This document shows positions 258 to 53,970 of a stretch of 64,000 nt of DNA, in pieces. The number at the start of each line of letters is the position of its first letter. Position 1 is the stretch's first letter. Position numbers and translations under genes: made by a program. Below the pieces are notes generated by a model. The model was not told the DNA's origin. It searched no databases and was given only the letters and a program-made list of their open reading frames with translations. Origin of the DNA: a candidate division FCPU426 bacterium. GTDB lineage: Bacteria > Oederibacteriota > Muellerivitia > Muellerivitales > Muellerivitaceae. Where the stretch lies: assembly GCA_963719085.1 (NCBI GenBank), contig CAVRAL010000001.1, positions 480,001 to 544,000 on the forward strand, in the 5' to 3' direction.

Positions 258-2474
258 ATGCAAATCAATTCCCTGGTTCCCGGCTGTTTCCATCTGGAAG
301 GCCCCACCTGCAGCGCGCTGCTCGGCAGTCCGCCTGAGATTTTAAAAGTCCTGATCAAAAACAAAAAGTCCGTCCCCCAAGTCGGTATTTTGCCCGATGT
401 TTCCCATAAAAATGGTGTTTCCCAAATGGCGTTTGAGTTTTTGGGCTACTGGTTTCTTTTCGTGGATCAGGGCTATCAAAAGGGAAAAAAATTCCGCATT
501 TTGGGCACCCCGGCCCTTTGCGAAAGGCTTTACCACATTCTTCGCGTCACGCTTCTGGGCCCCAGCCGCGAGGAGATGAAAGAATGGGGCCTGAGCAAAA
601 GCCGCGTGGACACCCTCGTCAAGATGTCGGAAGGTTTGGCCTTGAAGCGGGGCGAAAAAGTCCTGGCGGTGGAAGAGCTTTTCGAGTTCATCCATTTGCC
701 GGAAGAGGACGACAGCCTTTTCGTGCCGATTTTTTCCGATTCCAAAGATTATATGATTAAGCGTCTGGGGGAAAACCGGTATCAAATTCTGTCCCAGGGC
801 GAAACCCTGGAGTTGGACTTAAACTTCGAGGGCGAACAATCGCCCCCCCTGATTGACTTGACCGGTGAGGTGGAAAAGCCGGAAGCTCTCCGGGTGAAGG
901 TTTTGGGTTGTTACACCGGGTTTGACCCGGAAGGGCCCACCACGGGCATGCTTTTTTGGATCAACGGAAACGGCTTTCTCGTCGATTCGCCGGCGGGAAT
1001 CGGGAAGTATCTTAAACAAGTGGGTGTTTCCAAAGACCGTTTGACCGCCGTCATTCAAACCCACGTGCATGACGACCATTGCGCTTTGAGCGAGCTGCTT
1101 TTGTCCGAGCAGGTTTTAACCATCATCTCCACCCGTGAAATTTATGAGTGCATGGTCTTGAAGGTGGCCAATGTCATCGGGGAATCGACGGAGATGGTGA
1201 AGTCCATGATGCAATTCGTCGAGGTTATTCCGGGAAAAACCTACAACCTTTACGGCGCGGCTTGGGAATTTTTTTACACGGTTCATTCCATCCCCACGGT
1301 GGGATTCCGGGTGACGGTCCCGGACGAGAAGGGAAAAACCCACACGATTCTTCATTCCAGCGATTTGGACCATTTTGAGGGCATGCAGCAGTTGGTGGAC
1401 TCGGGCGCCATCAGCCAGGAACACATGGACCGCATGAAGGGGTTGGTCCGGGGAGATGAAAGGCTGGCCATGATCGACGCCGGCGGCGCGCCGATCCACG
1501 GGAAAACCTCGGATTGGGACGGCATGATCGCCCAATACCCGGACACTGAATTTCTCTTCTATCACGTGAACCCTTCCAAAGTGAACGCTGAAAAATACCA
1601 GGTGGCCCGGCCGGGTTGGGGCAAGACTTTTTTAGCCGAGCGCCAGTTTCCCCAATCGGTTTATAACGGCGTGGTGCAGGCCTTGAGATTATTCGAGATC
1701 AAAGACCAGTCTTGGACCAATATTTTGCTGTCCCAAGGCCAGGTGGTGGAATATCCGGCCAAGCACGAGGTCGTGCGCAAGGGCCAGGAAGGGGATTCTT
1801 TTTATTTTATCCTTTCCGGCAATTTGGACGTTTTGGATCCGGAGAACAAAAAGGAACCGCTTTTGGCCACCTTGGAAAGCGGCGATTTTTTTGGCGAGAT
1901 GTCGATCATCAACCGATCCAAAACGAACGCCACGGTGGTAAGCCGGACGCCGGTCATTCTTTTTAAACTTTCAGGCAGCTTGTTCTTGGAATTCGTGGAG
2001 AAAAACGAGCTCAAGGAAAATTTTTCCAGCCTCTGGAAAAGACGCCCGCTGATTTCCTCGGTGGCCATTTTCAGGGATCTGGATCCCACGGCCAAGCATG
2101 AGATATCCCTTTTGGCCAAGAGCCAGTCGTTTAAAAAAGGCGAATTGATCATGCGGCAGGGAAGCAAGACCGAGGAGTTTTACATCATTTCCTCGGGGAC
2201 CGTGGAGATTGTGCGTAAAAACGAAAACGGCAAAGTGGTGGTTTCCACTGAATTGAGGGCCGGGGAATTTTTCGGGGAAAACGTGGCGATTGGATACGTG
2301 GATAAACGAAACGCGTCGGCTTTGGCTTTAACCGACGTGACCACGCTGGTCATTTCGGGCCGGGAACTGCGCACGCTGGCCAAGCGGATGCCGGTCCTGC
2401 GCCATCAATTGCACGTGATCATGAAGCGGCGCGGAGTGACGGAAGAAGTTTTGGAAAAAGGCGTGGTTTTGTAG
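258..2474 (+). CDS. MBL-fold metallo-hydrolase with two C-terminal cNMP-binding domains (putative cyclic-nucleotide phosphodiesterase)
   Basis: THVHDDH (HxHxDH), HSIPT and later D/H ligands; two cNMP domains (FYFILSG..GDFFGEMS; FYIISSG..GEFFGE..RNAS); SD GAGGAG before ATG. Confidence 0.8.
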   Translation: MQINSLVPGCFHLEGPTCSALLGSPPEILKVLIKNKKSVPQVGILPDVSHKNGVSQMAFEFLGYWFLFVDQGYQKGKKFRILGTPALCERLYHILRVTLLGPSREEMKEWGLSKSRVDTLVKMSEGLALKRGEKVLAVEELFEFIHLPEEDDSLFVPIFSDSKDYMIKRLGENRYQILSQGETLELDLNFEGEQSPPLIDLTGEVEKPEALRVKVLGCYTGFDPEGPTTGMLFWINGNGFLVDSPAGIGKYLKQVGVSKDRLTAVIQTHVHDDHCALSELLLSEQVLTIISTREIYECMVLKVANVIGESTEMVKSMMQFVEVIPGKTYNLYGAAWEFFYTVHSIPTVGFRVTVPDEKGKTHTILHSSDLDHFEGMQQLVDSGAISQEHMDRMKGLVRGDERLAMIDAGGAPIHGKTSDWDGMIAQYPDTEFLFYHVNPSKVNAEKYQVARPGWGKTFLAERQFPQSVYNGVVQALRLFEIKDQSWTNILLSQGQVVEYPAKHEVVRKGQEGDSFYFILSGNLDVLDPENKKEPLLATLESGDFFGEMSIINRSKTNATVVSRTPVILFKLSGSLFLEFVEKNELKENFSSLWKRRPLISSVAIFRDLDPTAKHEISLLAKSQSFKKGELIMRQGSKTEEFYIISSGTVEIVRKNENGKVVVSTELRAGEFFGENVAIGYVDKRNASALALTDVTTLVISGRELRTLAKRMPVLRHQLHVIMKRRGVTEEVLEKGVVL

Positions 2475-2715
2475 GTTTTTTTGTCTGATTTTTTAGTGTC
2501 AGAGGATTATCAAAAAGTCTAAAAATCGAACAAAGATGTCATTTTCCGTTTAACCTGTCCATTTAATCGGTTACTGAAAATACCCGTAATTCCTTAAAGA
2601 GTTTGATAAAGCGATTCACGGAAAAAGGGCATAGAAATTGCCCTTTCTTCCATGGCCGGTGAAATTTTATTGCCCGGATCCCATGTTTAATTTCAGGAAA
2701 AGGTTTTCACGAGCG

Positions 2716-4911
2716 ATGCTAAAAACGATTCAACAAATTATAAATTCACTTTATGCCGCTTTTTATTCGCCGGCTTTGGGAATGATTTTTTTCCTGATGG
2801 TCTGGCCTTCCTTTGGCTTTTCGGCGCCGTCCGCATTGACCGTTTCGGGAAACCGTATCGTTTCGTCCGGTGGTTGTACTTTTTTACTGAGGGGCGTGGA
2901 CGTGGACGGCCTGGAATTTTCGCCCGGCGGATACGGCCCGCCCAGCGGAAATAACGGGAGCACTTTGGCGGTGGTGGGAGAAGCGGTCACGGTTTGGGAT
3001 TCCAACGTCATCCGTCTTCCGCTCAACCAGGATTATTGGTTCGGGTGTAATGGCGCCAACGCCGCTTCCTATCAACAAGCGGTCAGCAATATCGTCAATT
3101 ATTGTTCCGCCCAAAATGTTTACGTTATTTTGGACCTGCACTGGTCGGGAACCTATAGCGGTACTTCCGCCACCAGTCCTTCGGGATGCAGCAGCGGGAA
3201 CGGATGGGGAAGCTCCAACGCGCAACAAGTGATGCCGGACTGGAACTCGGTGACCTTTTGGGGATCGGTGGCCACCGCTTTTTCCAATAATCCCGCCGTT
3301 CTCTTTGACCTCTATAACGAACCGCATCCGGATTCCAGCTTGGGCTCGCCGGGTGATTGGCAAGTTTGGCAAAATGGAGGCGCGACCAGCAGCACCCCCA
3401 GCCAAACGCCCGGGATGAAGAATCTTTTGAACGCCGTTCGGGCCACCGGCGCCAATAACATTTGTTTAGTGGGCGGTTTGCAATACGCCTATGACCTGTC
3501 CCAAGTAGACACCTATCCCGTCACCACTTCCACGAATGTCGGCAACGGGGTGGTTTATTCGGCCCACATCTATATCAACAAGGGAACACCCGGCCAAAGC
3601 ACTTGGGATCCCTATGTGACGACGGCCACCACCAACCATCCGGTCTTTATCGGGGAATATGGGCCCAGCCTGAGCTGCAATACGGATAGTTCGACCTTTG
3701 ATACGACTTTCTTCTCCTGGGCGAATGGTACCAACAGCAAAAGCTATGTTTATGGCGCCACCGCTTGGTCGATGACAACGGGTTCTTGCCCGAACCTGCT
3801 TTCGGATTGGAGCTTTGACACCACCAGCTGGGGTGCGGCGGTTAAAAATTGGCTGGCCACGCCGATTCCCACTTGCGGTTCGAGTCCTGTCAATACGGCC
3901 ACGCCCACGGTGACGCCGACCAAGACCCTTACTCCCACGGTTACGGCGACCGTGACCTCGACGCGGACCCTCACCCCCACCGCGACCTCGACCCCAACGC
4001 GTACCTTGACAGCCACACCTACCAAAACCCTGACCGCGAGCCCGACCTTCACGGCGACCGTGACCAGTACCAACACTTTAGCTTCCACACCGACTCCGAC
4101 CGTGACCGCCTCCCCTACCGCTACGAGGACGATGACCGCTACGGCGTCCGCTACCGCCACAAAGACAATGACCGCCACGGTAACACTGACCCGGACTCCA
4201 ACGGTGACCGCCACCTTGACCGTGACGAATACAATCACTTGGACACCTACCATCACCGACACGCCGAACGCCAGTTTCACCCCCAGCTTTACCCCGACGA
4301 TCACGCTGAGCCCGACCGTGACCGCTTCCGCTACTCCTACGGCGTCCGCTACCTCTACGGGAACAATGACTGCTACGGCAACCCTAACGGTTACGACGAT
4401 CCCGACTTCCACCCCAACCCTGACCGCCTCCGCTACCGCTACCTCGACGGCCACTCAAACCTTAACGCCTCTGTTCACTCCAACCGCTAGTTTCACCTTC
4501 ACCGCGACCCTTGTCCCGACCGCTACGGTGACTTTGACCCCCGTTCCGACGGGAACGGCGACTTTTTCTCCCACCTTGACCCCCACCGTTTATTTGCCGC
4601 CGACCGCCACGGCGACCTCGGCTTTTGGAGGGATGACTTTTGAGCCGCCTTACCCGAACCCCTCTTTTGGAAATCCAGTAACCTTGTTGGTGAATGTGCC
4701 TTCGACCGCCGCGGTGAAATGTTCAGTTTTCACGACGGCCTTCCGAAAAATATATGATGCGAATCAAACCATTATCGGAAATGGGAAGATGGTATGGAAT
4801 TTGTGTGATACGAGCGAAGTGCCGGTTTCAAACGGGGTTTACTATGTTCGTTTGGAAGTGGACTCGAATCATCCGCAGACCCAGATTTGGAAAGTGTTGG
4901 TATTGAAATAG
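2716..4911 (+). CDS. Secreted GH5-family glycoside hydrolase with Thr/Pro-rich stalk and T9SS type-A-like CTD
   Basis: Hydrophobic N-terminus; IRLPL, LDLHW, FDLYNEP (acid/base Glu), FIGEYG (nucleophile Glu); T-rich region ~3890-4620; CTD PYPNP..NGVYY..KVLVLK. Start uncertain (2716 or 2782; ORF track begins 2638). Confidence 0.85.
3890..4620 (+). repeat. Low-complexity coding repeat (T-x)n stalk
   Basis: ACN codon at roughly every second position; degenerate, no exact DNA unit. Confidence 0.85.
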
Positions 4912-5173
4912 CCGACTTTTATCATCGGGTTATTTCCCTTATTTTGTCAAAAGACCTACAGGAAGTAAGAAAGCGAACAGTTTTCCGCCCTGTTTCGCCT
5001 CCGAGGCTCACTTGGTTGTTTCGTTCAAATTCCGGATTTATCGATAAACATAAAAAACTATCAAAAAGGTATGGAAATTGCACTTTCATCTAATAGGATG
5101 AATGCGGGTTTTCGCCTTTCTTCAACTATCACTTCACTTTTCCCGCGATAAGCTCGAGATCTTGGTGACGATG

Positions 5174-5266
5174 TTTCTTGGCTTGACCCCTTGGGGGCCG
5201 TGGTCTTGAAACTTGCCGAGAGACGGACTGAAAAAGTAAATCGTTCCAAGAAAGCTAAAATCGATT
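5174..5266 (+). promoter_or_regulatory. Candidate structured 5' leader motif (copy 2)
   Basis: TTTCTTGG(5174-5181)/CCAAGAAA(5246-5253) encloses CCCC/GGGG and CCGT/ACGG stems; shares GACGG..TGAAAAA..AGTAAAyCG..TTCyArGAAAGC..CGATTG with 153-201. Confidence 0.4.
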
Positions 5267-8200
5267 GAATTTTAAAATTTTAAAATTTAATTACAGCAAA
5301 AACTCCTTCCTTGGCTTGCTTTGCGCCTTGGCGCTTGGGTTTATGGGGGCGAGTTCCGCTTCGGCTCAAAATATCACGATCATCAGCGATAGCATCACGC
5401 CCGCCAATCCGGCGCCGGGGCAAAGTTTCCAACTCAGCGTCACTTACTGTAATAACCAAAATACCCAATCCGAATGGGAAGTCGCCCTCAGCAGCGCGGG
5501 TACGACGGTCTTGGCTTGCCCGACCAAGAACCAAGTGTTTTTGGTCGACAAGAACGGCGTGAATGTGGACGAATCCGATCCTTGCGCCGGCGCCTCAGGT
5601 TGCAATATGGGCTGGCTCATGACGCCGACGGACGCCCAGACCAGCGGTTCTTGCGTGACCTTCACCCATACCTGGAACCTGACCATGCCGAACAACGCTG
5701 TTTATGGCGGAACCTACAACCTGATCCTGGGCGGAGGGGTTTATTACGAACAGTGCGGAGCGACACCCCAGGGCGGCATGGAAGTCACCATTCCCATCAC
5801 GGTTCCGGTTCCCGCCACTTCGATCCTCAGCACCAGTAAAACGGCCGAAGGTGGAAACGCGGCTCCGGGCGATCTCATTCTTTTTACCGTCAATTATGAT
5901 TTTCTCAACGACACCAGTGGCGGAACCATTACGGATACCGTGCCGGCGGGAGTCACCATGGTTGAAATGGGTCCGGGTGCCCCTGTGGGCGATTCGAGTT
6001 CCGGCGTGGCCCCCGGCTCGACCCTGACTTGGACCGTGCCCGGCAGCGGTACTGAAGCGGAGGGACAGGTTTGGTTTTTGGGCCGGGTGTCTTCGACGGC
6101 GACGGCGGGAACCCTAATCAGCAATACGGCGAAGTTGGCGCTCAACGGAACGGGGTTGACGCAAAACACGAATACGGCCACCTCCACGGTCGGCGGAAGC
6201 GGATTTTCGCTCACCAAAACTCAATTTCCCCAGGCGAACCCCTTGGCCGCGGGGCAGAGTATTCTTTATGGTTTAAGCTACGTGGCCAACGGCTATAGTC
6301 TGCAATGGTACGATTCTTATGACAACGATGGGAATGGAACATTAGGGTCGGGATATGACGGAACGGGTTATACCGACGTTCCGGGCCAAACCACCGGCGG
6401 TTATACGGTCGCCACCGATTCCCAAGGCAATCATTATCTGGTGGCCACCTCGACCTACTCGACCTCGGGCGGGGACTATCCGTTGTACCTGCGCGGCAAC
6501 GGCGAAAATTTATGCGCGGGAACCTATGTGGTGGAAGGCGATGTGCAGATTCCCACGACGGCGCCGGGAGCCAGCGGTGCGAGCGCGGGGGCGGACGCCA
6601 GCATGGTTTTAGCTTACGGCGTCAATGGCGGGGTGACCCAGGCCTACATGGCCTCGATTTCCTTGGACAATGGTCCCGGATATCTCTTTGAGCAAGTCAA
6701 CAACGGAACCTCTTATACCTCGAAGGGCGGACTGACCTCTTATCCGCAGCCGGTCACCATCACGGCGGGAGTTTGGTACACGATAAAAGCCGTAATGACG
6801 GTGACGGCCGCCGGTTGCATGACGCTCACCCAATATGTGTGGGACCGCAATAATCCTTCGTTGGTCGACACCTACACCTATCCCCAGGATTGCACTTTCG
6901 GCGCGAACCTTTGCGCGGATAAATGGCAGCAAGGCTGGCAGGCGGACGCCACCTCGGGGATCGACTGGTATTCCAATTTGAAGTTTGAGCAGGCCGATCC
7001 GATCGTCAACGCCAAACTTTGGGACACGATTCCCACTGGCGTAACCTACACCGGCGAGAATACGACGAATTCCAATTCGGTTCCGGCGCCTACATTCAGC
7101 AACTCAGGCGGGGCCTTGACTTGGAGTTTTCCGGCCACCGTTTATAACCTCCAGGGCTCGGTTTCCTGGTGGGGCAACGTCAGCTGCACGGGCGCCGCCC
7201 AAACCATCATCAATTCCTTCTCCATGGGCGCGCAGGGAGTCAGCACGGCCCTTTCGAATTCAGTGACGGCCATCGTCCAATGCGCTTCGCCCACCCCGAC
7301 CCCGACCCCGACCGTCACGAATACCATTACGCCGACCCGCACCCCGACCCCCACGCCGACCATTACTCCCACGTCCACGCCGACCCCTACCCGCACGCCG
7401 ACCCCGACCCCCACGATCACCAATACCAATACCCCCACGTTCACCCCGACCTGGACCCCCACGCCGACCAATACCCGTACTCCCACGCCGACGCCGACGA
7501 TAACGCCGACGATGACGCCTACCAACACTCCGACGATGACACCCACCAAGACTCCGACCATCACGCCGATCTTCACGAATACTTATACGTGGACGCCCAC
7601 GGTGACTAATACCTTTACCCCCACGAACACGCCTACGCCCACCCCCACACGCACCCCCACCTTAAGCCCGACTCCGACAAATACAGTAACGGCTACTTGG
7701 ACCCCCACTTGGACTCCGACGCCGGTTCCTTCCGCCACCGTTACGCCGACCTTTACCCCGACTTTCACCTTCACGCCGACCTTTACGCCGACTGAAACGA
7801 ATACCATTACCCCGACCAATACCTTCACTGTGACGAATACGGACACCTTTACTCAGACACCCGTTCCTTCGGCGACGGACACCTTTACCTTTACGGTCAC
7901 CAATACGCCGACCTTCACCTTTACCTGGACCCAGACCTTTACGCCGACCCCGACGAATACGCCTCCATTTACGCCGACGAATACCTTTACCCCGACCTGG
8001 ACCTCGACCTTTACGAACACCTTCACGCCCACGACCACTTTCACGCCGACCCCGACCCCGACCCAAACCCCGAGCCCGACTCCGGCCACCTCGGTTCTAT
8101 TCACCAAAAAGGTCAATCCGACCACGGTCTCCGGGGGAGGGATATTGACCTATACCTTGAATATCGACGTTCAAAACAGCCCGTCGACGAATCCGGTAGT

Positions 8201-9383
8201 GACCGATCTGCTGCCTTCCAACGTGACTTTTGTTAAATTTTTAACGGGTAATCCGGCGGTGGCCGGCGTGACGCTTTTAAATGGGGGCGTAACCGAATTG
8301 GAATGGAACCTGTCCACTTTAAGTCCGGGTCAATACTCATTGGGCTATGAAACCCAGGTCAATAATTTCGTGACCGGCGGGAGCACCATCGTGAACCAGG
8401 CGGTTTTTGACTCTTCCAACCTGAGCCAACCCTTGACGGCGGTGGCCAAGGCGCTGGTTTCGGGAACCTACACGGTCAGTATCGATATTTATAACGGGGC
8501 CGGTGAAATCGTCAAAACCATCCCCATCCAACAATTCTCCGAGCCCGTTCAAAATATCGCCATTGGCAGCACGAATATCATCGGGAATTCCAGCAATCCG
8601 GTGACGATCTTCTTTGGCACTATCCCGATCGGGATTTGGGACGGGACGAATAACAACCAGGAGCCCGTCTTGAACGGCAATTACTACGTCAAGGTGGACA
8701 GCGTGGATCCCATGGGCAACTTGACCAGTGTCACTCAGATCGTGGCCGTCAGCCGGACGCTCTACACGATCACGGCCAATATCTACAATGAGGCCGGTGA
8801 AATTGTTAAGCACCTTCTCGCCTATTCCACCACCCCCGGGCAGGCCTTGATCACGGGGGCGACTTTGTCCACGCCGATTTTAAAACCCTCGGCGGATCCC
8901 TCGCCAGGCCAGCCCACGCAATTGACCATTACCCTGAATACGGGCGTGACCATGACCTGGGACGGGACTTCGGATTCGGGAAGCCTGGTACAAGGCGGAC
9001 AGTATTACATTGAAATCAGTTCCAACGACGGCAAGGGAAGCTCCAGCGAGTTGACCCAAACCATCGTGGTCACGGGAACCGGGTCCACGGGTATCACGAG
9101 CGTGGCCGCGTCCCCCAATGAATTAACTTTTGCCAATGGCACCACATCCACGACCTTTAAAGTGAAAGCTTCCATGCCGGTGTTCGTGGAGGCGATCATT
9201 TACACGGTGGCGGGCGAGAAGGTGGCCGTGGTCGGGAATGATCCCGCCAATCCAAACCAAAGTTTGCCGTGGGACGCCAGCAACCACGCCAGCGGCCTTT
9301 ACATCGCCGTGGTGACCGTGCGGGACGCGTCCTCCAACGGAATTATCGCCCACAAAACTTGCAAGTTCGTGATTCTTCGATAA
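5265..9383 (+). CDS. Large secreted modular protein: Cys-rich N-domain, DUF11-like Ig repeats, inserted beta-rich domain, Thr/Pro stalk, two FlgD-Ig-like domains, T9SS-like CTD
   Basis: Signal peptide ending ASA-Q; DUF11-type [14 protein letters not shown] motifs; IYNxAGEIVK..WDGT..GxYY twice; terminal [25 protein letters not shown] start. Confidence 0.75.
7287..8090 (+). repeat. Low-complexity coding repeat (TP/TF/TW/TN)n stalk
   Basis: About 265 codons with Thr at alternate positions. Confidence 0.85.
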
Positions 9384-9434
9384 AGGCCGTTTGATGAGTG
9401 ACGGTCATCTTAGGGTTCACGGATTAAAGCCATT

Positions 9435-12400
9435 TTGAAAAAACAAAAATTAAAATCGATTCAATTGTTCGTTTGGGCCGCCGGATTTTGTTTTTTCCTT
9501 TCAGCCGCCGACGCGGCCACCAATATCCCCTCGCAGGCCTGGAGCCGCGACATCAACGCCGGGGGCTATACGGATGGGGCGCCGATCGGCGGTTTTGGCG
9601 CGGGAACCATGACCTGGGATTTTTCGGGGAATTTTTATCTGGGCCGCCTCAACATCGCCACCGCGGCCGTCACCACGGGCAACGCCCCCTACGCGATTGA
9701 CGCCAACGCCCATTTCTATATGTACCAAAAACTTTCGGGCCAAGCCGCGGTCGAGAAAATGCTCAACGCCGCCACCTTGGGATCGGGGGAGGCCACCTAT
9801 TACTCCCTTTTTCCAAAAGCTTGGGTGGATTATTCCGGCCCGACTTTTCCCCTGGAAACCAAAGTCACCCAGTTCTCGCCGATCATTCCCGGGGATTACC
9901 AGCGAACCAGTTATCCTGAGGGGATTTATGAGTGGGACGTCACCAACAGTCAGGCGGTCTCCTGCGATTTCGCGGTGATGCTGACCTTTGACAATACCTT
10001 CGGCGGCACCAACGCGGCCGTCACGACCTCCGGAAGCAATGTGGGATTGGTATTAACCCGCAATACGGGCAACGCCTCCAGCCCCGCCCAGGGTGAGTTT
10101 TCTTTGGCGTCCCAAACCTCCACTGGCGTGACGGTGACCTATGAGTCGGCGGCGGCATTGACCACCCTTCAGACGGCTTTCGCGGCTTCGGGTAACCTGG
10201 CGGATACCACGGGCAACAACACGATCGGCGCGATCGCTTTTAAGGTGACCCTGGCGCCGGGTCAATCGGTGAAAATCCCAATTGTGCTGGCTTGGGATAT
10301 TCCGCAAGCTAAGCCCGGCACGGGAGCCGCTTGGTACCGCGAATACACGAAATACTATGGCGGCGTCGCCACCGGGCGCACCGGGTTTAATTCCGGGGCA
10401 ATCGCTTTTGACGCGCTCAATAATTACGCCACCTGGGAAGCTTCCATCGACAGCTGGCAATCGGGCATCCTCACGGGCAATTATCCCGACTGGCTCAAGC
10501 AAATGCTTTTCAACGAGCTTTACTATTATTTTACCGGCGGAACCATGTGGGAAGCGGGGCAGGTGGGCAGTACGGCTTTCGACGCCAAACCCAGCATGTT
10601 CAGCAGTTTGGAAAGCTACATTTATGATTTTTATGGGACATCGGACGTGCGTTTTTACGGCTCTTGGCCCTTGGCCTTGCTTTGGCCCAATATCGATAAA
10701 CAGGAAGTCCAGCAGTTTTGCGACAGCGTGACCACGGGCACCAGCTTGATCGGGGTGGCCCCGCTTTCGGCCGCCACCTGCGCCCATGACATCGGCGACG
10801 ATAACGGGGTCTTCACCGAATGGAACGCTTACGTCTACCGCGATTCCACCACTTGGAAAGATTTGAACTCGAAATTAGTGCTGATGGTTTACCGGGCCTG
10901 GGAATTGACGGGGAAGACCGACACGACTTTTCTCAATTATTGCTGGCCGGCGGTCCAGGCGGCCATGACCAAGGTCCACGGCGAGTGCGACGCCAACGGG
11001 CTGCCCTACTCCAACGGCATCGACCAAACTTATGATGACATGGGGCTGTATGGCGACACGGCTTATTGCGGAAGCTTGTTTTTAGCCGCTTGCGAGGCGG
11101 CCCAATCCATCGCCACGGCCGAAGGCAATAGCGCCTTGGCCACCACTTACGGAACCTGGCTGACGACGGGACAGACGGGATTCAATACCTTATGGAACGG
11201 AACTTATTACAACATTGATAACGGAGCCACCGACACGGCCCAAAACCGGATCATGGTGGATCAATTGGCCGGGGAATGGTATGCCAAAGCCTTGGGGCTT
11301 CCGGGAATCGTCAGTGACGCGAACGCCAACAGCGCTTGGCAGGTGATCCATGACAATAACTGGAAAAAATTCGATGGGGGCGCCCATGGCGCCGTGAATG
11401 TCATGACGGCGGCCGGCGCGATTGATACGACCTGGCCCCAAAGTCAGGAAGCCTGGGTGGGGGTGAGTTGGGGGGCGGCCGCGGGAATGATCCAACAGGG
11501 AATGTTCACCCAAGGCACGGATTTGGGCTATAGCCTTTACAACAGTATTTGGAATTTGGGGCAGTTCTGGTTTAGAACGCCTGAAGCCTGGGAGACCGGG
11601 CTCGCCAATTTCCGGGCCCCCTATTACATGCGGGCCAACGCCATTTGGGCCGTGAAGCACGCTTACGATATCGCCCCGCCGCCCTGCGGGCTTTTGACCT
11701 GCACGGCCACGCCCACCTTTAGCCCCACCCTCACCCAAACCCCCACCGCCACGGTCAATCCTTGCGCTTATATTTATGAGGCGGTGGATTGCGGTTCGGC
11801 GGCCCAGACGATTATCGGCGGCGTGACTTGGCTGGCGGATAAAGCCTATACGGCGAGCGGCTATGGTTATGTGACGGTGGGAACGACCGCCACCACGGCT
11901 ACCGCGATCACCGGTTCCGGCGCCCAACAGCCTATTTACCAAAGCGAGCGTTACGCCCCGACGTTGGAATATAAATTCACGGTCCCGAACGGGACTTATC
12001 AGGTGACGATTAAAAACGCCGAGCAATATTGGACGGCGCCGGGGAAGCGGGTCTTTAACGTGGCCATCAACGGCGTCACGGTTTTAAACAACTTGGATAT
12101 TTTTTCCCAAGTCGGCGAATTCGCGGCGGATGACCACACCTTCACGGTTTCGGTGACGGGAGGGCTCATTGACTTGGTGGAAGCGGCCAGCGCGGATAAC
12201 GCCGAATTGACCGGCGTTGAGATTGTCAGTGAGGCGCCTTGCTCTCCCACCCCTTCGCCTACTCAAACTTTCACCCCGAGCCCAACGGTTACGCCCACAC
12301 CCACCTGGACGGTGACTAAAACCATGACCATGACGCCCACGGTTTCACCGACCGCCTCCGCTAGCGCTACGGCGTCCGCTACCGCTTCGGCGTCCGCGAC

Positions 12401-13190
12401 TTCGACGCCGACCCTGACCGCTACAGTATCCGCCACGGCTACGATTACCCAGACGCCTCAGTTCTCGCCGACCGCGACCGCTACTTCGACCTTAACGGCG
12501 ACCCTGACCGCGACGGTTTCCGCTACCGGGACCCCTTCCATCACGGCGACTTCCGCCTTTTCGCCAACCGCCACCGTTTCCCCCACGAGGACAATGACCG
12601 CTTCGGCAACCGGCACTCCGTCATTGACGGCTACCCCCACGACGACCCCGTCCTTCACTAAGACGGTTACATTGACGGTGACGCCAAGCGCGACTAAAAC
12701 TCCAACCCTGATCCCCACCGCTTCCCCTACGGGAACAATGGCCGCTTCGGCGACGCCGACCGCTTTGGCGACAGCGACCCCTTCGCCGACGCTCACAATG
12801 ACGCCGATTCCTACCCAAACCGCCTCGGCCACCGCTTCCCCGACGCCCTTGCCGACGAATTCTCCCACGGGGACCCTGACAGCGACCCCGATCCCCACGA
12901 TGTCGTTCACCGATATATCGGCGCCTTATCCCAACCCCACTTCGGGCGGGCCGGTTACGATTCAATTGAATTTATCGGGGTCTTATCAAGTCAAGTGGGA
13001 CATTTTTACGACCGCTTTCAGGAGAATCGCGGGCCAAAGCAGCAATTCCTTGCCGGGGAATACTTTGATTTGGAATTTAAAGGACCCGGAAGGCCAGGAA
13101 GCGGCCAATGGCATTTATTATTGGCGAGTTGAATTAAAAGACGCCGGCGGCAGTCACACCCGTCTGGTCAAGATTCTTGTCCTGCGATAA
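9435..13190 (+). CDS. Secreted GH116 beta-glucosidase-like enzyme + malectin-like domain + Thr stalk + T9SS-like CTD
   Basis: Signal peptide (ADA-A); GH116 motifs APIGGFGAG, FNELY, LESYIY..TSDV, WKDLN, DQTYD, FRTPEAW, YMR; malectin motifs YQSERY, VPNGTY.V...AE, RVFNV.ING, LDIF; CTD PYPNP..FTTAFR..NGIYY..KILVLR. Confidence 0.85.
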   Translation: MKKQKLKSIQLFVWAAGFCFFLSAADAATNIPSQAWSRDINAGGYTDGAPIGGFGAGTMTWDFSGNFYLGRLNIATAAVTTGNAPYAIDANAHFYMYQKLSGQAAVEKMLNAATLGSGEATYYSLFPKAWVDYSGPTFPLETKVTQFSPIIPGDYQRTSYPEGIYEWDVTNSQAVSCDFAVMLTFDNTFGGTNAAVTTSGSNVGLVLTRNTGNASSPAQGEFSLASQTSTGVTVTYESAAALTTLQTAFAASGNLADTTGNNTIGAIAFKVTLAPGQSVKIPIVLAWDIPQAKPGTGAAWYREYTKYYGGVATGRTGFNSGAIAFDALNNYATWEASIDSWQSGILTGNYPDWLKQMLFNELYYYFTGGTMWEAGQVGSTAFDAKPSMFSSLESYIYDFYGTSDVRFYGSWPLALLWPNIDKQEVQQFCDSVTTGTSLIGVAPLSAATCAHDIGDDNGVFTEWNAYVYRDSTTWKDLNSKLVLMVYRAWELTGKTDTTFLNYCWPAVQAAMTKVHGECDANGLPYSNGIDQTYDDMGLYGDTAYCGSLFLAACEAAQSIATAEGNSALATTYGTWLTTGQTGFNTLWNGTYYNIDNGATDTAQNRIMVDQLAGEWYAKALGLPGIVSDANANSAWQVIHDNNWKKFDGGAHGAVNVMTAAGAIDTTWPQSQEAWVGVSWGAAAGMIQQGMFTQGTDLGYSLYNSIWNLGQFWFRTPEAWETGLANFRAPYYMRANAIWAVKHAYDIAPPPCGLLTCTATPTFSPTLTQTPTATVNPCAYIYEAVDCGSAAQTIIGGVTWLADKAYTASGYGYVTVGTTATTATAITGSGAQQPIYQSERYAPTLEYKFTVPNGTYQVTIKNAEQYWTAPGKRVFNVAINGVTVLNNLDIFSQVGEFAADDHTFTVSVTGGLIDLVEAASADNAELTGVEIVSEAPCSPTPSPTQTFTPSPTVTPTPTWTVTKTMTMTPTVSPTASASATASATASASATSTPTLTATVSATATITQTPQFSPTATATSTLTATLTATVSATGTPSITATSAFSPTATVSPTRTMTASATGTPSLTATPTTTPSFTKTVTLTVTPSATKTPTLIPTASPTGTMAASATPTALATATPSPTLTMTPIPTQTASATASPTPLPTNSPTGTLTATPIPTMSFTDISAPYPNPTSGGPVTIQLNLSGSYQVKWDIFTTAFRRIAGQSSNSLPGNTLIWNLKDPEGQEAANGIYYWRVELKDAGGSHTRLVKILVLR
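12243..12900 (+). repeat. Low-complexity coding repeat (T-x)n stalk
   Basis: T/A/S/P-rich alternating pattern. Confidence 0.85.
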
Positions 13191-50216: not shown

Positions 50217-52334
50217 GTGACGAGACCGGTGAAAAAGGCAACTTTCTTGAAAGCTCACGGCAGGCTGTTTTTCCTGGGATTGGCGGTATTCCTTAATTTG
50301 GCCGCTTGGAGCCAGGTTTATGGCCAAGTCACCACCCAGACCCAGCCCATTTTTGGGCGAAAAGAGACTTTTGGCATAGGCCCCCGGGCGATTGGGATGG
50401 GCGGAGCTTTCACGGCTTTATCGGATGACGCTTCGGCGGTTTATTGGAATCCGGCGGGTTTATCCCAGCTTTCGTCTTACGAACTGGAACTTTCCGCCTC
50501 GCCGGTTAACTTCGACAGTCATTTCGGCTTCCCTTACTACTCCTCCATTCAGTTCGTCATGCCCATCGCCAAAGAAAACACCCTGGCCCTTTCCATGTTT
50601 CGCCCTTTTAATCCCCAACGGGACTATTTCGCGGGAAGCGGCTTGGGCTCGGCTGATACGGGGGAAGCCAGCTATATTATGAATCCTTCATTTCAAGAAA
50701 GTGAAATCATCCTGTCTTACGCCGCCCGGTTCACCACGCTTCAAAATTTCGCGGTGGGCGTGAATATCAAAAGGATCACCAATGATCCCTACTACATTAA
50801 ATATTTCGCCAATTCGGACGATTCTCAAGAGCCCGAAGTCGCCCAATCGCTGGCGAACGCCACGAGGGTCATCGGTTATGGAGTTGATATCGGATTACTT
50901 TATCGTATTCCAATCACCAAATATTCCGAGGAATTCCGTTTGGGGTTGGATCTGCGCGATTTGGTCAGCCGGGTGGATTATGTGAACGGTCTCGGGGTGA
51001 CAACGGTGGCTCCGGGCCCCGTTACGACGGTCGCTTATTCCGAGGGCGGCGGTTATGAAACCAATATCCCGACCGAAATTACCTTGGGATTGGCCTTAAC
51101 CAATCATTATTTCTTCCGCGTACGGAATGTCATGGCTTTTGACTATGACCAAATTTCGGATCCGCGGTTTGACGGCTCGGATAACACTTTCATCCGTTTT
51201 GGGACTGAGTTCTGGTTTTTCAACGATGTCCTGGGCGTTCGGGCTGGATACTCAACACCGGTCACCCGTCCGGGAACGATCAGCATGGGCTTGAGCTTCC
51301 GGAGTTTAGGCGGGGATTTTCAGGCGGACTTGGCTTATCTTTTGCCGGTCAGCCCAACCGCCGACGTCGCTTCAGGTTCGGCTATTGGTGTGTATAACGA
51401 GGGCGGGATTAATTTTGAGCCCTTCTACATCGGTCTGGATTACGCTTTTGGGGGCGGGCAAGAGCTTCCGCCGCCCAAGGTCAGCGCTTTCGTGAGGCCG
51501 GCTGCCTTTACGCCCGCGCAAGGGGAAAAGGCCACCTTTTTCTTGGACACGACGGAAGACGTGGACGTGAAAAAATGGAGCGTATTGATTTACGACTCGA
51601 ATAATCATTATGTCCGCGGTCTGCGCGGGGTGGGTTCGCCTCCGACCCAACTGGTTTGGAGCGGGGAAGACGATTCGTATCAACCGCTTCCGCCGGGAGT
51701 TTATACCTGGGCCTTTCAGGTGCAGGATGAGTTGGGCCATATCGGATCCACCGCCATCCAAACGGTTGAGATTTTAGCCGCGCCTCAAGCGCTCACCCGG
51801 GATCCGGCGAAACTTTTGGCGATCCGTCAACAACAGGCGGCATTGTTGGCCCAAGAGCGTCAAACCTTAAGCGCCTTGGCCCAGAAGAATTTAAACGACT
51901 TGCTGGGCGAGCCGACGCCGAACACGGCGACGGCCGCGGGAGTGGAACCCCAGGCCAATACCTTGACGCCGGAGGCCGGAGGGGTCCCCGTGATTGGTTT
52001 TACCAGTATTCCGCCGGAAGATGTTTTGAACGCCCACTTTGACAAGAACGCCAATGGGGAACCGGTGGTGGACGTGAGTTACCAATCCAAGCTCGATTAT
52101 GTGCCTTATATTTACCAAGAGGCCTCGGATGTCATTAAGGCCACGGTTAATTCAGTAGGAACTGGTTTAAAAGACATCCAAACTCGTGTATATTACGGTA
52201 AGAATGAGCTTTCTATCAGCACGCCTAGTGAAGCCGCCGCCAATTACGCTTCGGGAAAAATTAACCAGCTTCAGTTGATGCAGCTTTCGGAAATCGTTAT
52301 TAATGGCCAAAAGGTAGGTCCGAATGGTTATTAA
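50217..52334 (+). CDS. PorV/FadL-like outer-membrane beta-barrel + FlgD-Ig-like domain + unknown C-terminal domain
   Basis: Signal peptide; GIGPRAIGMGGAFTALSDDASAVYWNPAGL; amphipathic strands to IGLDYAFG; AFTP..IYD..WSGED..LPPGVY; Gln-rich helix. Confidence 0.75.
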   Translation: MTRPVKKATFLKAHGRLFFLGLAVFLNLAAWSQVYGQVTTQTQPIFGRKETFGIGPRAIGMGGAFTALSDDASAVYWNPAGLSQLSSYELELSASPVNFDSHFGFPYYSSIQFVMPIAKENTLALSMFRPFNPQRDYFAGSGLGSADTGEASYIMNPSFQESEIILSYAARFTTLQNFAVGVNIKRITNDPYYIKYFANSDDSQEPEVAQSLANATRVIGYGVDIGLLYRIPITKYSEEFRLGLDLRDLVSRVDYVNGLGVTTVAPGPVTTVAYSEGGGYETNIPTEITLGLALTNHYFFRVRNVMAFDYDQISDPRFDGSDNTFIRFGTEFWFFNDVLGVRAGYSTPVTRPGTISMGLSFRSLGGDFQADLAYLLPVSPTADVASGSAIGVYNEGGINFEPFYIGLDYAFGGGQELPPPKVSAFVRPAAFTPAQGEKATFFLDTTEDVDVKKWSVLIYDSNNHYVRGLRGVGSPPTQLVWSGEDDSYQPLPPGVYTWAFQVQDELGHIGSTAIQTVEILAAPQALTRDPAKLLAIRQQQAALLAQERQTLSALAQKNLNDLLGEPTPNTATAAGVEPQANTLTPEAGGVPVIGFTSIPPEDVLNAHFDKNANGEPVVDVSYQSKLDYVPYIYQEASDVIKATVNSVGTGLKDIQTRVYYGKNELSISTPSEAAANYASGKINQLQLMQLSEIVINGQKVGPNGY

Positions 52335-53970
52335 CCAAAAAACACTTGAACTCAAAAATACCTCAAAAGGGTTATTTTTGAGTTCCTCCTTTTTTAAGTG
52401 TTTTGTCTTGTTTTGTTTTTTCTCCTTGCTTCAAAGTCCCGCCTTCGCCGTATTCGACAAGGGGGGGATTTCGGGTATTGGGGCAAGGCCTTTGGGCATG
52501 GGCGGGGCCTTCACGACCGTCGCCGACTCCAGTGACGCGATCTTTTACAATCCCGCCGGGTTGATTCAGGTTTTGCGGCCTGAAGTTTCCGGGATGGGAG
52601 CGGTTCTTTTGAACGGAAAAGAAGACCTATTTGACTTGGCTTATGTTCAACCCTTCGCGGATCAGTTGGCTTGGGCCATTGCCATTCAAGACTTGGACGA
52701 CAATGGAGGCCCCTCGGAAGGCTCGGAAAGAATTTATTACGCCACCTTCGCCGCGCCTTTGGCGGTGGACAAATCATTTTCGTTTGGTTTGAACGTCAAG
52801 TTGTTGACGGTTGATTCTCCCACCCTGCCCAATTATTCCGCCAATGGGATCGGGTTTGACATGGGCTTTTTATATCATCTGCCCATTTTGGATCCGCGTT
52901 ATGGAAAGCGCATTAACATCGGTTTATCGGCCCAGGATTTGGACACCAACATCCAATGGCAGGATGGAAGCCAAACTAAAATTCCATTGGATGTGCGTGG
53001 CGGATTCAGCTACCAGTTCAACGATGATTTAACATTGGCCTGCGAGCTGGAGGATTTTGATGATCCGGATTTATCGACCCAAAGAACTCTTTTGCACGTG
53101 GGGCTGGAAGATTGGTTTTTTCAGGACCAATTGGGTTTACGGACCGGTTACAGCGAATTTGTGACGGAAGACGGCCAGTTTACGCTGGGGATCAGCTATC
53201 GTTCCCGGACCTGGGGAGTGGACTACGCTTTCATCGGTCATCCGCAATTCTTGGGTTCTTCCCACCGTATTTCGGCCAACTGGCGCTTCGGGGACACCTT
53301 TTTCGCCAAAGCCCAAAGTTTTATTCCCGAAGGCGTCGCCTCTTATGTTGAGGGGGACATCATTACGTTGAAATGGCTGGGTTCTCCCAGCGTTTCGGTG
53401 GACGGCTATAACGTTTATTTCAGCAAGACCACGGGCAGCGGCTATGTCAAAATTAACAAGAACCCCATCAAGACGACTTATTACGCGCTTCGGGGTTTGG
53501 AAAAAAACACCCAATATTATTTCGTCGTGACTTCGGTGACGGCCACGGTTCCCCCGGTGGAAAGCCAGTATTCGCGTGAGGTGGTGGCGATCACCACCGC
53601 GGCGCCCGGCGCTCCTGTGGTTGTTCAGAGCGACGTTCAAAACGAAGGGGTGATTGATATCGCCAAGCAATCCCAGATGGGGAATTTCCCCGATCCCGCG
53701 AAAAATGGGTTGCGGGGCTATAACATCTATTTCTCGGAAGTTTCCGGCGGGCGGTTTGACCGGGTTAACAACCAACCCATCGCGAATGTCCCGACCTATC
53801 TGGTCCGAAAGCTGAAAGTGGGCCAGCGTTATTTCTTTAAATTCACTTCCGTCGGAATGGACGGCTCGGAAAGCGTTCCGACGCAAGAGATCAGCTTCAT
53901 CGCCTTGCCTTACAGTACGGTGGTGCAGAGCGGCACCGCGAGCGTTCCCGCGGCGGGCGCGGCGCACTAA
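52324..53970 (+). CDS. PorV/FadL-like outer-membrane beta-barrel + two fibronectin-III-like domains
   Basis: Signal peptide (AFA-V); GIGARPLGMGGAFTTVADSSDAIFYNPAGL; VDYAF..LGSSHRIS..WRF; FN3 motifs LKW..GYNVY..GL..NTQYYFVVT..ES and GYNIY..LKVGQRYFF..ES. Confidence 0.78.
   Translation: MVINQKTLELKNTSKGLFLSSSFFKCFVLFCFFSLLQSPAFAVFDKGGISGIGARPLGMGGAFTTVADSSDAIFYNPAGLIQVLRPEVSGMGAVLLNGKEDLFDLAYVQPFADQLAWAIAIQDLDDNGGPSEGSERIYYATFAAPLAVDKSFSFGLNVKLLTVDSPTLPNYSANGIGFDMGFLYHLPILDPRYGKRINIGLSAQDLDTNIQWQDGSQTKIPLDVRGGFSYQFNDDLTLACELEDFDDPDLSTQRTLLHVGLEDWFFQDQLGLRTGYSEFVTEDGQFTLGISYRSRTWGVDYAFIGHPQFLGSSHRISANWRFGDTFFAKAQSFIPEGVASYVEGDIITLKWLGSPSVSVDGYNVYFSKTTGSGYVKINKNPIKTTYYALRGLEKNTQYYFVVTSVTATVPPVESQYSREVVAITTAAPGAPVVVQSDVQNEGVIDIAKQSQMGNFPDPAKNGLRGYNIYFSEVSGGRFDRVNNQPIANVPTYLVRKLKVGQRYFFKFTSVGMDGSESVPTQEISFIALPYSTVVQSGTASVPAAGAAH

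Follow-up and report, generated by a model that had tools for sequence, protein, structure and literature searches.

The locus analyzed here lies in a 64,000-nucleotide stretch of a bacterial genome (contig CAVRAL010000001.1, positions 480,001 to 544,000; hereinafter the window, to which all coordinates without a contig label refer), where three successive forward-strand open reading frames (ORFs) between positions 2638 and 13190 encode proteins of 757, 1372 and 1251 amino acids (2638-4911, 5265-9383 and 9435-13190, respectively). The first and the third of these proteins contain glycoside hydrolase domains of the families GH5 and GH116, respectively, and the middle one is a candidate adhesin; all three end with a tail of about 95 amino acids that is related to the type A C-terminal sorting domains (CTDs) known from type IX secretion systems (T9SS). 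The original prediction, made from the window alone, had described three consecutive genes with unrelated payloads that share a signal peptide, a long Thr-rich stalk and a tail, a description that is borne out by the ORFs, Pfam matches, amino acid composition and alignment. The features of these genes are the following (amino acid numbers refer to the respective ORFs):

2716..2826, forward strand: likely start of the GH5 protein and Sec signal peptide, with predicted cleavage near FSA/PS (ORF, read by eye)
2947..3777, forward strand: GH5 (Cellulase) catalytic domain, amino acids 104-380 (PF00150)
3850..4626, forward strand: Thr-rich stalk of the GH5 protein, amino acids 405-663 (composition)
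4627..4908, forward strand: tail of the GH5 protein, amino acids 664-757, FTTAFR subfamily, a divergent T9SS type A CTD (TIGR04183, AlphaFold2, Foldseek)
5265..5366, forward strand: signal peptide of the adhesin candidate, amino acids 1-34 (read by eye)
5367..7253, forward strand: N-terminal region of the adhesin candidate, amino acids 35-663, no Pfam match at E<=0.1
7254..8138, forward strand: Thr/Pro stalk of the adhesin candidate, amino acids 664-958 (composition; loose tandem repeats in the DNA)
8091..9089, forward strand: DUF11-like segment followed by FlgD-Ig-like repeats, amino acids 943-1275 (identity to a paralogue, FlgD_ig, local profile)
9090..9380, forward strand: tail of the adhesin candidate, amino acids 1276-1372, a variant with YTVAGEKV (TIGR04183, local profile)
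9435..9515, forward strand: signal peptide of the GH116 protein, amino acids 1-27 (read by eye)
9576..11654, forward strand: N-terminal and catalytic domains of the GH116 protein, amino acids 48-740 (PF12215, PF04685)
11781..12182, forward strand: Malectin-type carbohydrate-binding domain, amino acids 783-916 (PF11721)
12207..12902, forward strand: Thr/Ser/Ala/Pro stalk of the GH116 protein, amino acids 925-1156 (composition)
12903..13187, forward strand: tail of the GH116 protein, amino acids 1157-1251, FTTAFR subfamily (TIGR04183; 38% identity to the GH5 tail)

Payloads, stalks and tails of the three proteins

The likely start of the GH5 protein is Met27 of the ORF, at position 2716, and the N-termini of all three proteins, as read by eye, resemble Sec signal peptides (...GFSA/PSA, ...SSASA/QN and ...SAADA/AT). 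The payload of the first protein, a predicted glycanase, matches PF00150 with an E-value of 6e-32 (111.6 bits); the third protein contains the N-terminal (PF12215, 3.9e-47, 161.8 bits) and catalytic (PF04685/DUF608, 1.7e-89, 301 bits) domains of the GH116 family along with a Malectin domain (PF11721, 1.1e-23, 84.4 bits), and all these scores are far above the respective Pfam gathering scores. The sole Pfam match of the middle protein, in a scan at E<=0.1, is FlgD_ig (3.7e-08). The same scan yielded no match to DUF11 (PF01345), the domain on which the earlier assignment of this protein as an adhesin candidate had drawn. Residues 943-1057 align with the DUF11-matching stretch of a paralogue (40% identity over 569 columns overall), and by this similarity alone, the segment can be denoted putatively DUF11-like.

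The stalks are rich in alternating Thr residues and, at the DNA level, are no more than loosely repetitive. In the GH5 protein, the stalk spans 259 amino acids (40.5% Thr, 84 TxT triplets) and in the middle protein, 295 amino acids (44% Thr, 117 TxT triplets); in the GH116 protein, the Thr-rich run, at 33% Thr with 49 TxT triplets, covers 246 amino acids (925-1170). The order payload-stalk-tail that had been proposed for all three proteins is found in the GH5 and GH116 proteins, but the middle protein carries about 320 amino acids of DUF11-like and FlgD-Ig-like repeats between the stalk and the tail; the local profile of the tails scores three tail-like domains in this protein.

The three tails can be aligned with each other, with 38% identity between the GH5 and GH116 proteins and 21% between the middle and GH5 proteins. 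The motifs originally quoted for the first and third tails, PYPNP, PVT, FTTAFR[KR]I, WNLxD, NG[VI]YY and K[VI]LVL[KR], occur as written, and their counterparts in the middle protein are [15 protein letters not shown] and KFVILR.

The tail family and its carriers

To assess the extent of this family, all six-frame ORFs of the genome (3.04 Mb in 5 contigs, 99.08% complete) were searched with a hidden Markov model (HMM) of the three tails. About 50 further ORFs were matched, and after four rounds of the search, the family comprised 70 ORFs; given this expansion, the presence of related tails in the three proteins is no chance match. In 66 of the 70 proteins, no more than 8 residues separate the end of the domain from the C-terminus, the position that had been anticipated for a sorting domain; in the remaining 4, the domain is internal. 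The count of 66 is a lower bound, as the HMM threshold missed, for example, a 2634-amino acid ORF (G000:C4:87710-95614, where the labels denote genome, contig and positions). This ORF has a Thr/Pro/Ser (T/P/S) stalk of about 1600 amino acids and ends with ...KLAILH.

When the last 100 residues of the 66 tail proteins were scanned against NCBIfam, the T9SS type A sorting domain model TIGR04183 (cut-off 23 bits) matched 48 tails at E<=0.01 and 14 above the cut-off, with a best score of 41.9 bits; the three tails of the locus are among those below it. For many of the tails, there are additional matches to FlgD and to the CTD portions of the PorU, PorZ and M6-like models, and 4 of the 66 have no NCBIfam match at all. 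Of the 63 tail proteins scanned in full, 3 passed the gathering score of the Pfam counterpart, PF18962 (of the other 7 family members, the three proteins of the locus and the neighbor of the SprA-like protein described below were scanned separately, and three proteins of contig C5, with an internal domain, were left out).

In the alignment of 49 tails, Gly72 and Tyr74 are the only positions without variation. Among the 66 tails, the G-x-Y-hydrophobic motif is present in 61, a terminal basic-hydrophobic strand (K-hydrophobic-[RKH]) in 47, PNP in 29 and TTAFR in 14. FTTAFR, originally put forward as a lineage-specific signature, was rejected as such and is the mark of a subfamily, found mostly on carbohydrate-active enzymes (CAZymes), in the place of Y-x-AGE in the family consensus.

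The AlphaFold2 model of the GH5 tail, computed from the 49-tail alignment, is a six-stranded beta-sandwich (predicted local distance difference test score, pLDDT, 92.4; predicted TM-score 0.83), in agreement with the expectation of a CTD-like fold. The top match of this model in a Foldseek search of the PDB is the CTD of PorU (6za2, TM-score 0.77, E-value 1.9e-4), followed at lower ranks by PorZ, FlgD, the RgpB CTD and the NucA CTD. The 49-tail profile compared with PDB sequences gives a similar picture (PorU CTD, 7e-9; FlgD, 8e-9; PorZ, 1e-7) and additionally matches the substrate CTDs in the SprA complexes of Flavobacterium johnsoniae (8glk_D, 8e-5; 8glj_D, 5e-4). PEP-CTERM- or LPXTG-type sorting signals were considered and rejected: the tails are folded beta-sandwiches without a terminal membrane helix.

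The tails belong, as divergent representatives, to the T9SS type A CTD superfamily. With the type A CTDs of Bacteroidota (TIGR04183/PF18962), of which those of Porphyromonas gingivalis PorU (6za2), PorZ (5m11) and RgpB (5hfs and 7pq4) and of F. johnsoniae NucA (8glk_D) have been solved, they share detectable similarity of sequence and fold, the size of about 90 amino acids, the location at the extreme C-terminus of Sec-exported proteins, the beta-sandwich with PNP, G-x-Y and the terminal K-hydrophobic strand, and the kinds of carriers, namely CAZymes, proteases and adhesins. The differences are that most copies, including those of the locus, score below the curated cut-off, that the tail usually follows a long stalk of alternating Thr, and that no PorU that could cleave it was found.

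The three proteins of the locus thus belong to a set of at least 66 potential cargo proteins, mostly CAZymes acting on plant polysaccharides, proteases and beta-propellers. The tail-bearing enzymes include GH5, GH8, GH16, GH28, GH30, GH44, GH62, GH64, a second GH116, PL1, PL4-like and CE4 proteins, many of which contain additional malectin, CBM3, CBM9 or CBM11 modules; the other carriers include two subtilases, two pro-kumamolisin proteins, Kelch/NHL propellers and DUF11 proteins. Stalks and tails are associated in this genome: a T/P/S stalk of at least 40 amino acids abuts the tail in 35 of the 66 proteins, and of the 65 ORFs in which the stalk is at least 60 amino acids long, 50 carry the tail.

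Among these genes, a cluster of four CAZyme genes (G000:C4:1000827-1036523) encodes proteins with identical last 90 residues, a pattern suggestive of gene conversion or of a stalk-tail cassette common to these genes. Furthermore, three small proteins (G000:C1:1275714-1276385, C1:1237578-1238336 and C4:940519-941307) combine anti-sigma-like, cytoplasmic-looking N-termini with a C-terminal FlgD-Ig/tail-like domain; two of them adjoin pairs of cargo and barrel genes (see below), and these proteins may be envelope sensors rather than cargo.

The phylogenetic spread of the tail was assessed in 99 species representatives of the host phylum, which belong to 23 coded families, the host family being represented by 31 genomes. 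All 99 genomes encode the tail, with 10 to at least 50 matches each. What is seen at the locus is a standard trait of the lineage and not a local peculiarity. Bacteroidota hold far more than 99 species representatives and, judging from the size of this set, the host phylum is probably distinct from Bacteroidota.

SprA-like protein and PorV/PorQ-like barrels

The genome encodes a homolog of SprA/Sov, the outer-membrane translocon of the T9SS. This 1948-amino acid ORF (G000:C1:943518-949364, minus strand) matches TIGR04189 in four colinear stretches with 231.8 bits, above the cut-off of 200, and SprA-like proteins are present in 93 of the 99 genomes of the phylum, including 58 of the 60 high-quality ones. 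The gene belongs to a module (G000:C1:939018-951395) that consists of genes for a histidine kinase, a LytTR response regulator, the SprA-like protein and a 1499-amino acid protein, with lipopolysaccharide (LPS) genes nearby. The order regulator, SprA-like protein, 1499-amino acid protein is retained in all 5 relatives with enough flanking sequence. Searches of Pfam, NCBIfam, the PDB and the Atlas with the 1499-amino acid protein yielded only fn3 and tail-type matches; this protein may have an accessory role in the system. Limited similarity to SprA, over a short stretch (33 bits), was also observed in a 1103-amino acid LysM protein encoded in a separate locus (G000:C5:152281-157743), together with a FlgD_ig-NHL protein, in which the Ig domain is N-terminal, and a weakly matching PorV-family barrel (34 bits).

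The second recognizable component is a family of outer-membrane barrels, of which a local HMM detects 20 in the genome. Two are encoded in the window:

50217..52334, forward strand: PorV/PorQ-like barrel (amino acids ~6-386) with an internal tail-like Ig domain, 705 amino acids (NF033709, 85.6 bits; local HMM, 4.6e-73)
52324..53970, forward strand: PorV/PorQ-like barrel (amino acids ~16-322) with an fn3 domain (2.5e-10), 548 amino acids (NF033709, 85.3 bits; local HMM, 1.4e-84)

These two proteins, by their sequences, are clear members of the barrel family of the genome, and their earlier description as PorV-like holds in this sense, but both fall short of the 90-bit cut-off of the PorV/PorQ family model NF033709. 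The two genes overlap by 11 bases and are lodged, at an odd site, within the flagellar gene cluster, with fapA and two unassigned ORFs on one side and the rod genes flgF/flgG on the other.

The NF033709 cut-off was passed by 4 of the 7 barrels scanned (183.4, 148.7, 132.5 and 123.0 bits). The best-scoring barrel (322 amino acids, G000:C1:653131-654099) has an orthologue with 58-69% identity in 26 of the 30 other genomes of the family, and the sole PDB match of its profile is F. johnsoniae PorV (6h3i_F, 5.4e-14). The genes next to this conserved barrel, which encode an ABC ATPase, a cyclic nucleotide-binding protein (after the barrel) and a polyprenyl synthase, show no link to the T9SS. In another PorV/PorQ-family protein (G000:C1:750663-752438), which has paralogues of about 590 amino acids in related genomes, the barrel is joined to an Ig-like domain and, at the C-terminus, to a peptidoglycan-binding domain of the OmpA type.

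The genomic context connects the barrels with the tails: 8 of the 20 barrel genes are located downstream of, and no more than 39 bp away from, a same-strand gene for a tail-bearing protein, the partners being ordinary cargo such as a pectate lyase, proteases and PA14/CBM9 proteins. Structure prediction points in the same direction. The GH5 tail was docked on the best-scoring 322-amino acid barrel with a score of 0.73 (runs 0.73, 0.74 and 0.65), the best of 3 controls being 0.00; at least 82% of the contacts were common to the runs, and pLDDT of the partners was at least 83. Among solved complexes, 116 of 157 reached that score mark, as did 2 of 215 mismatched pairs; these counts are rough because custom alignments were used. 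The predicted interface includes tail residues 8-14 (EPPYPNP, the PNP segment), 69-77 (the G-x-Y segment) and 89-96 (the terminal strand). Because PorV-CTD complexes have already been solved (8glk/8glj), this result of modeling is best taken as likeness to known complexes rather than as binding.

Probable export route and alternatives

The rest of the T9SS machinery could not be recognized. The PorU model (NF033707) matches proteins of the genome only at its CTD positions (~960-1095), with no catalytic part. Peptidase_C25 (PF01364) is missing in the genome and in all 31 genomes of the family and was found in 8 of the 99 genomes of the phylum, in proteins of about 1200 amino acids, one of which matches the PorU model over the catalytic part with 71.8 bits, far below the cut-off of 420. 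The FGE-sulfatase fold of PorK, GldK and GldJ (PF03781) has no match in the genome; the same search was positive in 3 control genomes and in 47 of the 99 genomes of the phylum, where its presence is generic and not diagnostic of PorK. GldM has no match in the 99 phylum representatives, and no control genome scored over its cut-off either. Altogether, the search for T9SS parts that had been suggested originally recovered SprA and no C25/PorU, FGE-fold PorK, GldL, GldM, GldN or PorP, that is, no ordinary complete T9SS. The lineage keeps the outer-membrane core of the T9SS, and the host family has no sortase, no PorK fold and no recognizable motor.

Export through the SprA-like pore with the participation of PorV-type barrels is the most likely route for the tail-bearing proteins, and we consider it probable; the tail family, the SprA homolog, the barrels and the missing parts all support the reduced, T9SS-like CTD/PorV route that had been originally proposed. 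Under this scenario, the cargo would be exported to the periplasm by Sec, and the tail would serve as the export signal, recognized by a PorV/PorQ-family barrel via the PNP, G-x-Y and terminal K-hydrophobic strand elements. The cargo would then cross the outer membrane through the SprA/Sov-like translocon, with the SprA-like protein acting as the pore for the tail-bearing proteins, and the uncleaved tail would hold it non-covalently on the PorV-like barrel while the stalk projects the enzyme past the LPS layer. Because no PorU sortase is present, the tail is probably retained and serves as a tether for the cargo. The three proteins of the locus are, accordingly, predicted to be Sec-exported and displayed on the cell surface, as a glycanase (GH5), a candidate adhesin with an Ig array and a malectin-containing GH116 beta-glycosidase.

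Several results weigh against this scenario. The tails of the locus miss the TIGR04183 cut-off (GH5, 19.1-19.3 bits; middle protein, 15.9-16.0; GH116, 17.3-17.5) and match the Ig domains of FlgD about as well as CTDs. A simple signal-peptide rule flags 44 of the 66 tail proteins compared with 408 of 1362 background ORFs (30%), although this rule is too crude for a reliable count and, on inspection by eye, a signal peptide is evident in many of the proteins that it misses. The SprA-like protein has no Pfam match and, used alone or as a profile of 6 orthologues, no match among PDB sequences, although these include the solved SprA. None of the barrels attains the equivalog cut-offs (best scores 83 vs 250 bits for PorV, NF033710, and 113 vs 220 for PorQ), the two barrels of the window are below even the family cut-off, and none of the three genes of the locus adjoins a barrel gene. 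Further, the genome encodes two secretins, so that a route of the type II secretion system kind is available. Finally, GldL, GldM and GldM_1st have no matches at E<=0.1 in the genome, nor do GldK, GldN and PorP have any, but none of 14 control genomes scored over the cut-offs of these models, so that the absence of these proteins is unproven.

In a more radical version of the preferred route, type IX-like export in the phylum would be reduced to a minimum: an SprA-type pore and the numerous PorV-type barrels would be its only components, without PorLM, PorKN and PorU, and uncleaved tails would keep the cargo permanently docked on dedicated or shared barrels; here, the motor would be truly absent rather than merely unrecognizable. 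We put this forward tentatively, as a possibility. The converse, an ordinary complete T9SS in which the motor PorL/M, the ring PorK/N and the sortase are too divergent for detection or are replaced by non-homologous analogues, and the tails are standard, cleaved type A CTDs, appears unlikely. The lineage is divergent from the Bacteroidota on which the HMMs were trained, given that SprA itself is seen only by its family HMM and not by Pfam or PDB searches; the searches for GldL, GldM, GldN, GldK and PorP lack a positive control; and 8 of the 99 phylum genomes do encode C25 proteins, one of which matches the PorU model. Nevertheless, the FGE-sulfatase fold expected of PorK is absent from the genome under a search that finds it in controls and in nearly half of the phylum, C25 is missing throughout the host family even though it is detectable elsewhere in the phylum, and GldM was found in none of the phylum genomes.

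Still less likely, in our assessment, is that the tail represents an Ig domain of the general FlgD type, which mediates surface binding or anchoring, for instance, to glycans, LPS or barrels, and is not a secretion signal, with export following another, e.g., secretin-based, route, and the SprA-like protein serving mainly its conserved neighbor. The equally good matches to FlgD models, the internal position of similar domains in 4 of the 70 proteins and their repetition in the middle protein of the locus, the two secretins, and the association of the SprA-like gene with a single dedicated fn3-plus-tail protein in all relatives that could be compared are compatible with this view. It does not account easily for the strictly C-terminal position of the tail in 66 of the 70 proteins, 47 of them with the K-hydrophobic-[RKH] end strand, for the co-occurrence of tails (99/99) and SprA (93/99) across the phylum, for the 8 tight cargo-barrel gene pairs, or for the involvement of the conserved tail motifs in the predicted interface with the PorV-like barrel. 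That the tails merely reflect a recent shuffling of domains, or gene conversion, between paralogous genes for CAZymes and have no common role in sorting is highly improbable: the identical ends of the four clustered genes and the concentration of FTTAFR tails on CAZymes would fit such a process, but the GH5 and GH116 tails of the locus are only 38% identical, those of the middle and GH5 proteins 21%, and members of the family are attached to unrelated payloads and occur in every one of the 99 phylum genomes.

Compared with the SprA/Sov-PorV system of F. johnsoniae (6h3i, 8gl6-8gln), the system that probably exports these proteins through the SprA-like pore shares an SprA homolog above the NCBIfam cut-off and PorV/PorQ-family barrels. 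The differences are substantial: the SprA-like protein has 1948 amino acids against the 2319 positions of the model and does not match the solved SprA sequence; the barrels form a set of 20 paralogues, in some of which an OmpA, fn3 or Ig domain is fused to the barrel; and no PorL/M, PorK/N, PorU, PorP or gliding genes were detected in the genome, which encodes a flagellar cluster with L- and P-ring genes. The adjacency of tail and barrel genes in 8 pairs is reminiscent of the PorU-PorV and PorZ-PorQ pairs of P. gingivalis, as far as the available descriptions of these complexes go, in that a CTD protein is paired with a PorV/PorQ-family barrel; unlike in the attachment complexes so described, the partners here are ordinary cargo and not sortase components, and their anchoring on the barrel is putative.

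The T9SS and its CTD cargo are regarded, in reviews, as confined to Bacteroidota or the Fibrobacterota-Chlorobiota-Bacteroidota (FCB) superphylum, with the PorLM rotary motor driving secretion (PMC10202324, PMC9127263). The literature surveyed, in which coverage of subscription journals is thin, contains no description of a motor-less or partial SprA/PorV/CTD T9SS outside FCB. A precedent is Poribacteria, where TIGR04183 tails were reported without Por structural genes and, in the portion of the report at hand, the secretion pathway "remains to be revealed" (Kamke et al. 2014, PMC3909097). The tails described here are likewise CTD-like and probably outside the FCB group; in contrast to what this portion relates of Poribacteria, an outer-membrane core (SprA and barrels) is identified and conserved across the phylum. 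The present findings offer a candidate answer to these 'orphan' tails.

Goldbacteria/FCPU426 have been characterized, in the available excerpts of the original account, as flagellated, uncultured, CAZyme-rich cellulose degraders (Doud et al. 2019, PMC7031533), and both the flagellation and the richness in CAZymes match the gene content of this genome. Within these excerpts, T9SS-type tails are not discussed, and the sole mention of type IX secretion is in the reference list. The system outlined here likely provides for the display of plant-polymer-degrading enzymes in this uncultured soil lineage.

The entire phylum, as represented by its 99 species, carries numerous CTD cargos, SprA and PorV-family barrels, and the host family has no detectable motor, ring or sortase; the phylum is a natural test case for a minimal T9SS transport core and for the ways such a core is energized. 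Release from the SprA translocon is currently held to be driven by the rotary motor. Should the minimal pathway be real, SprA/PorV transport would work without this motor or draw on another source of energy; the 20 barrels would be surface 'sockets' and the alternating-Thr stalks spacers that present a coat of CAZymes, in effect, a display akin to a cellulosome but assembled from T9SS components.

Just upstream of the three genes, the window (258-2474) encodes a 738-amino acid protein with a metallo-beta-lactamase fold and two cyclic nucleotide-binding domains.

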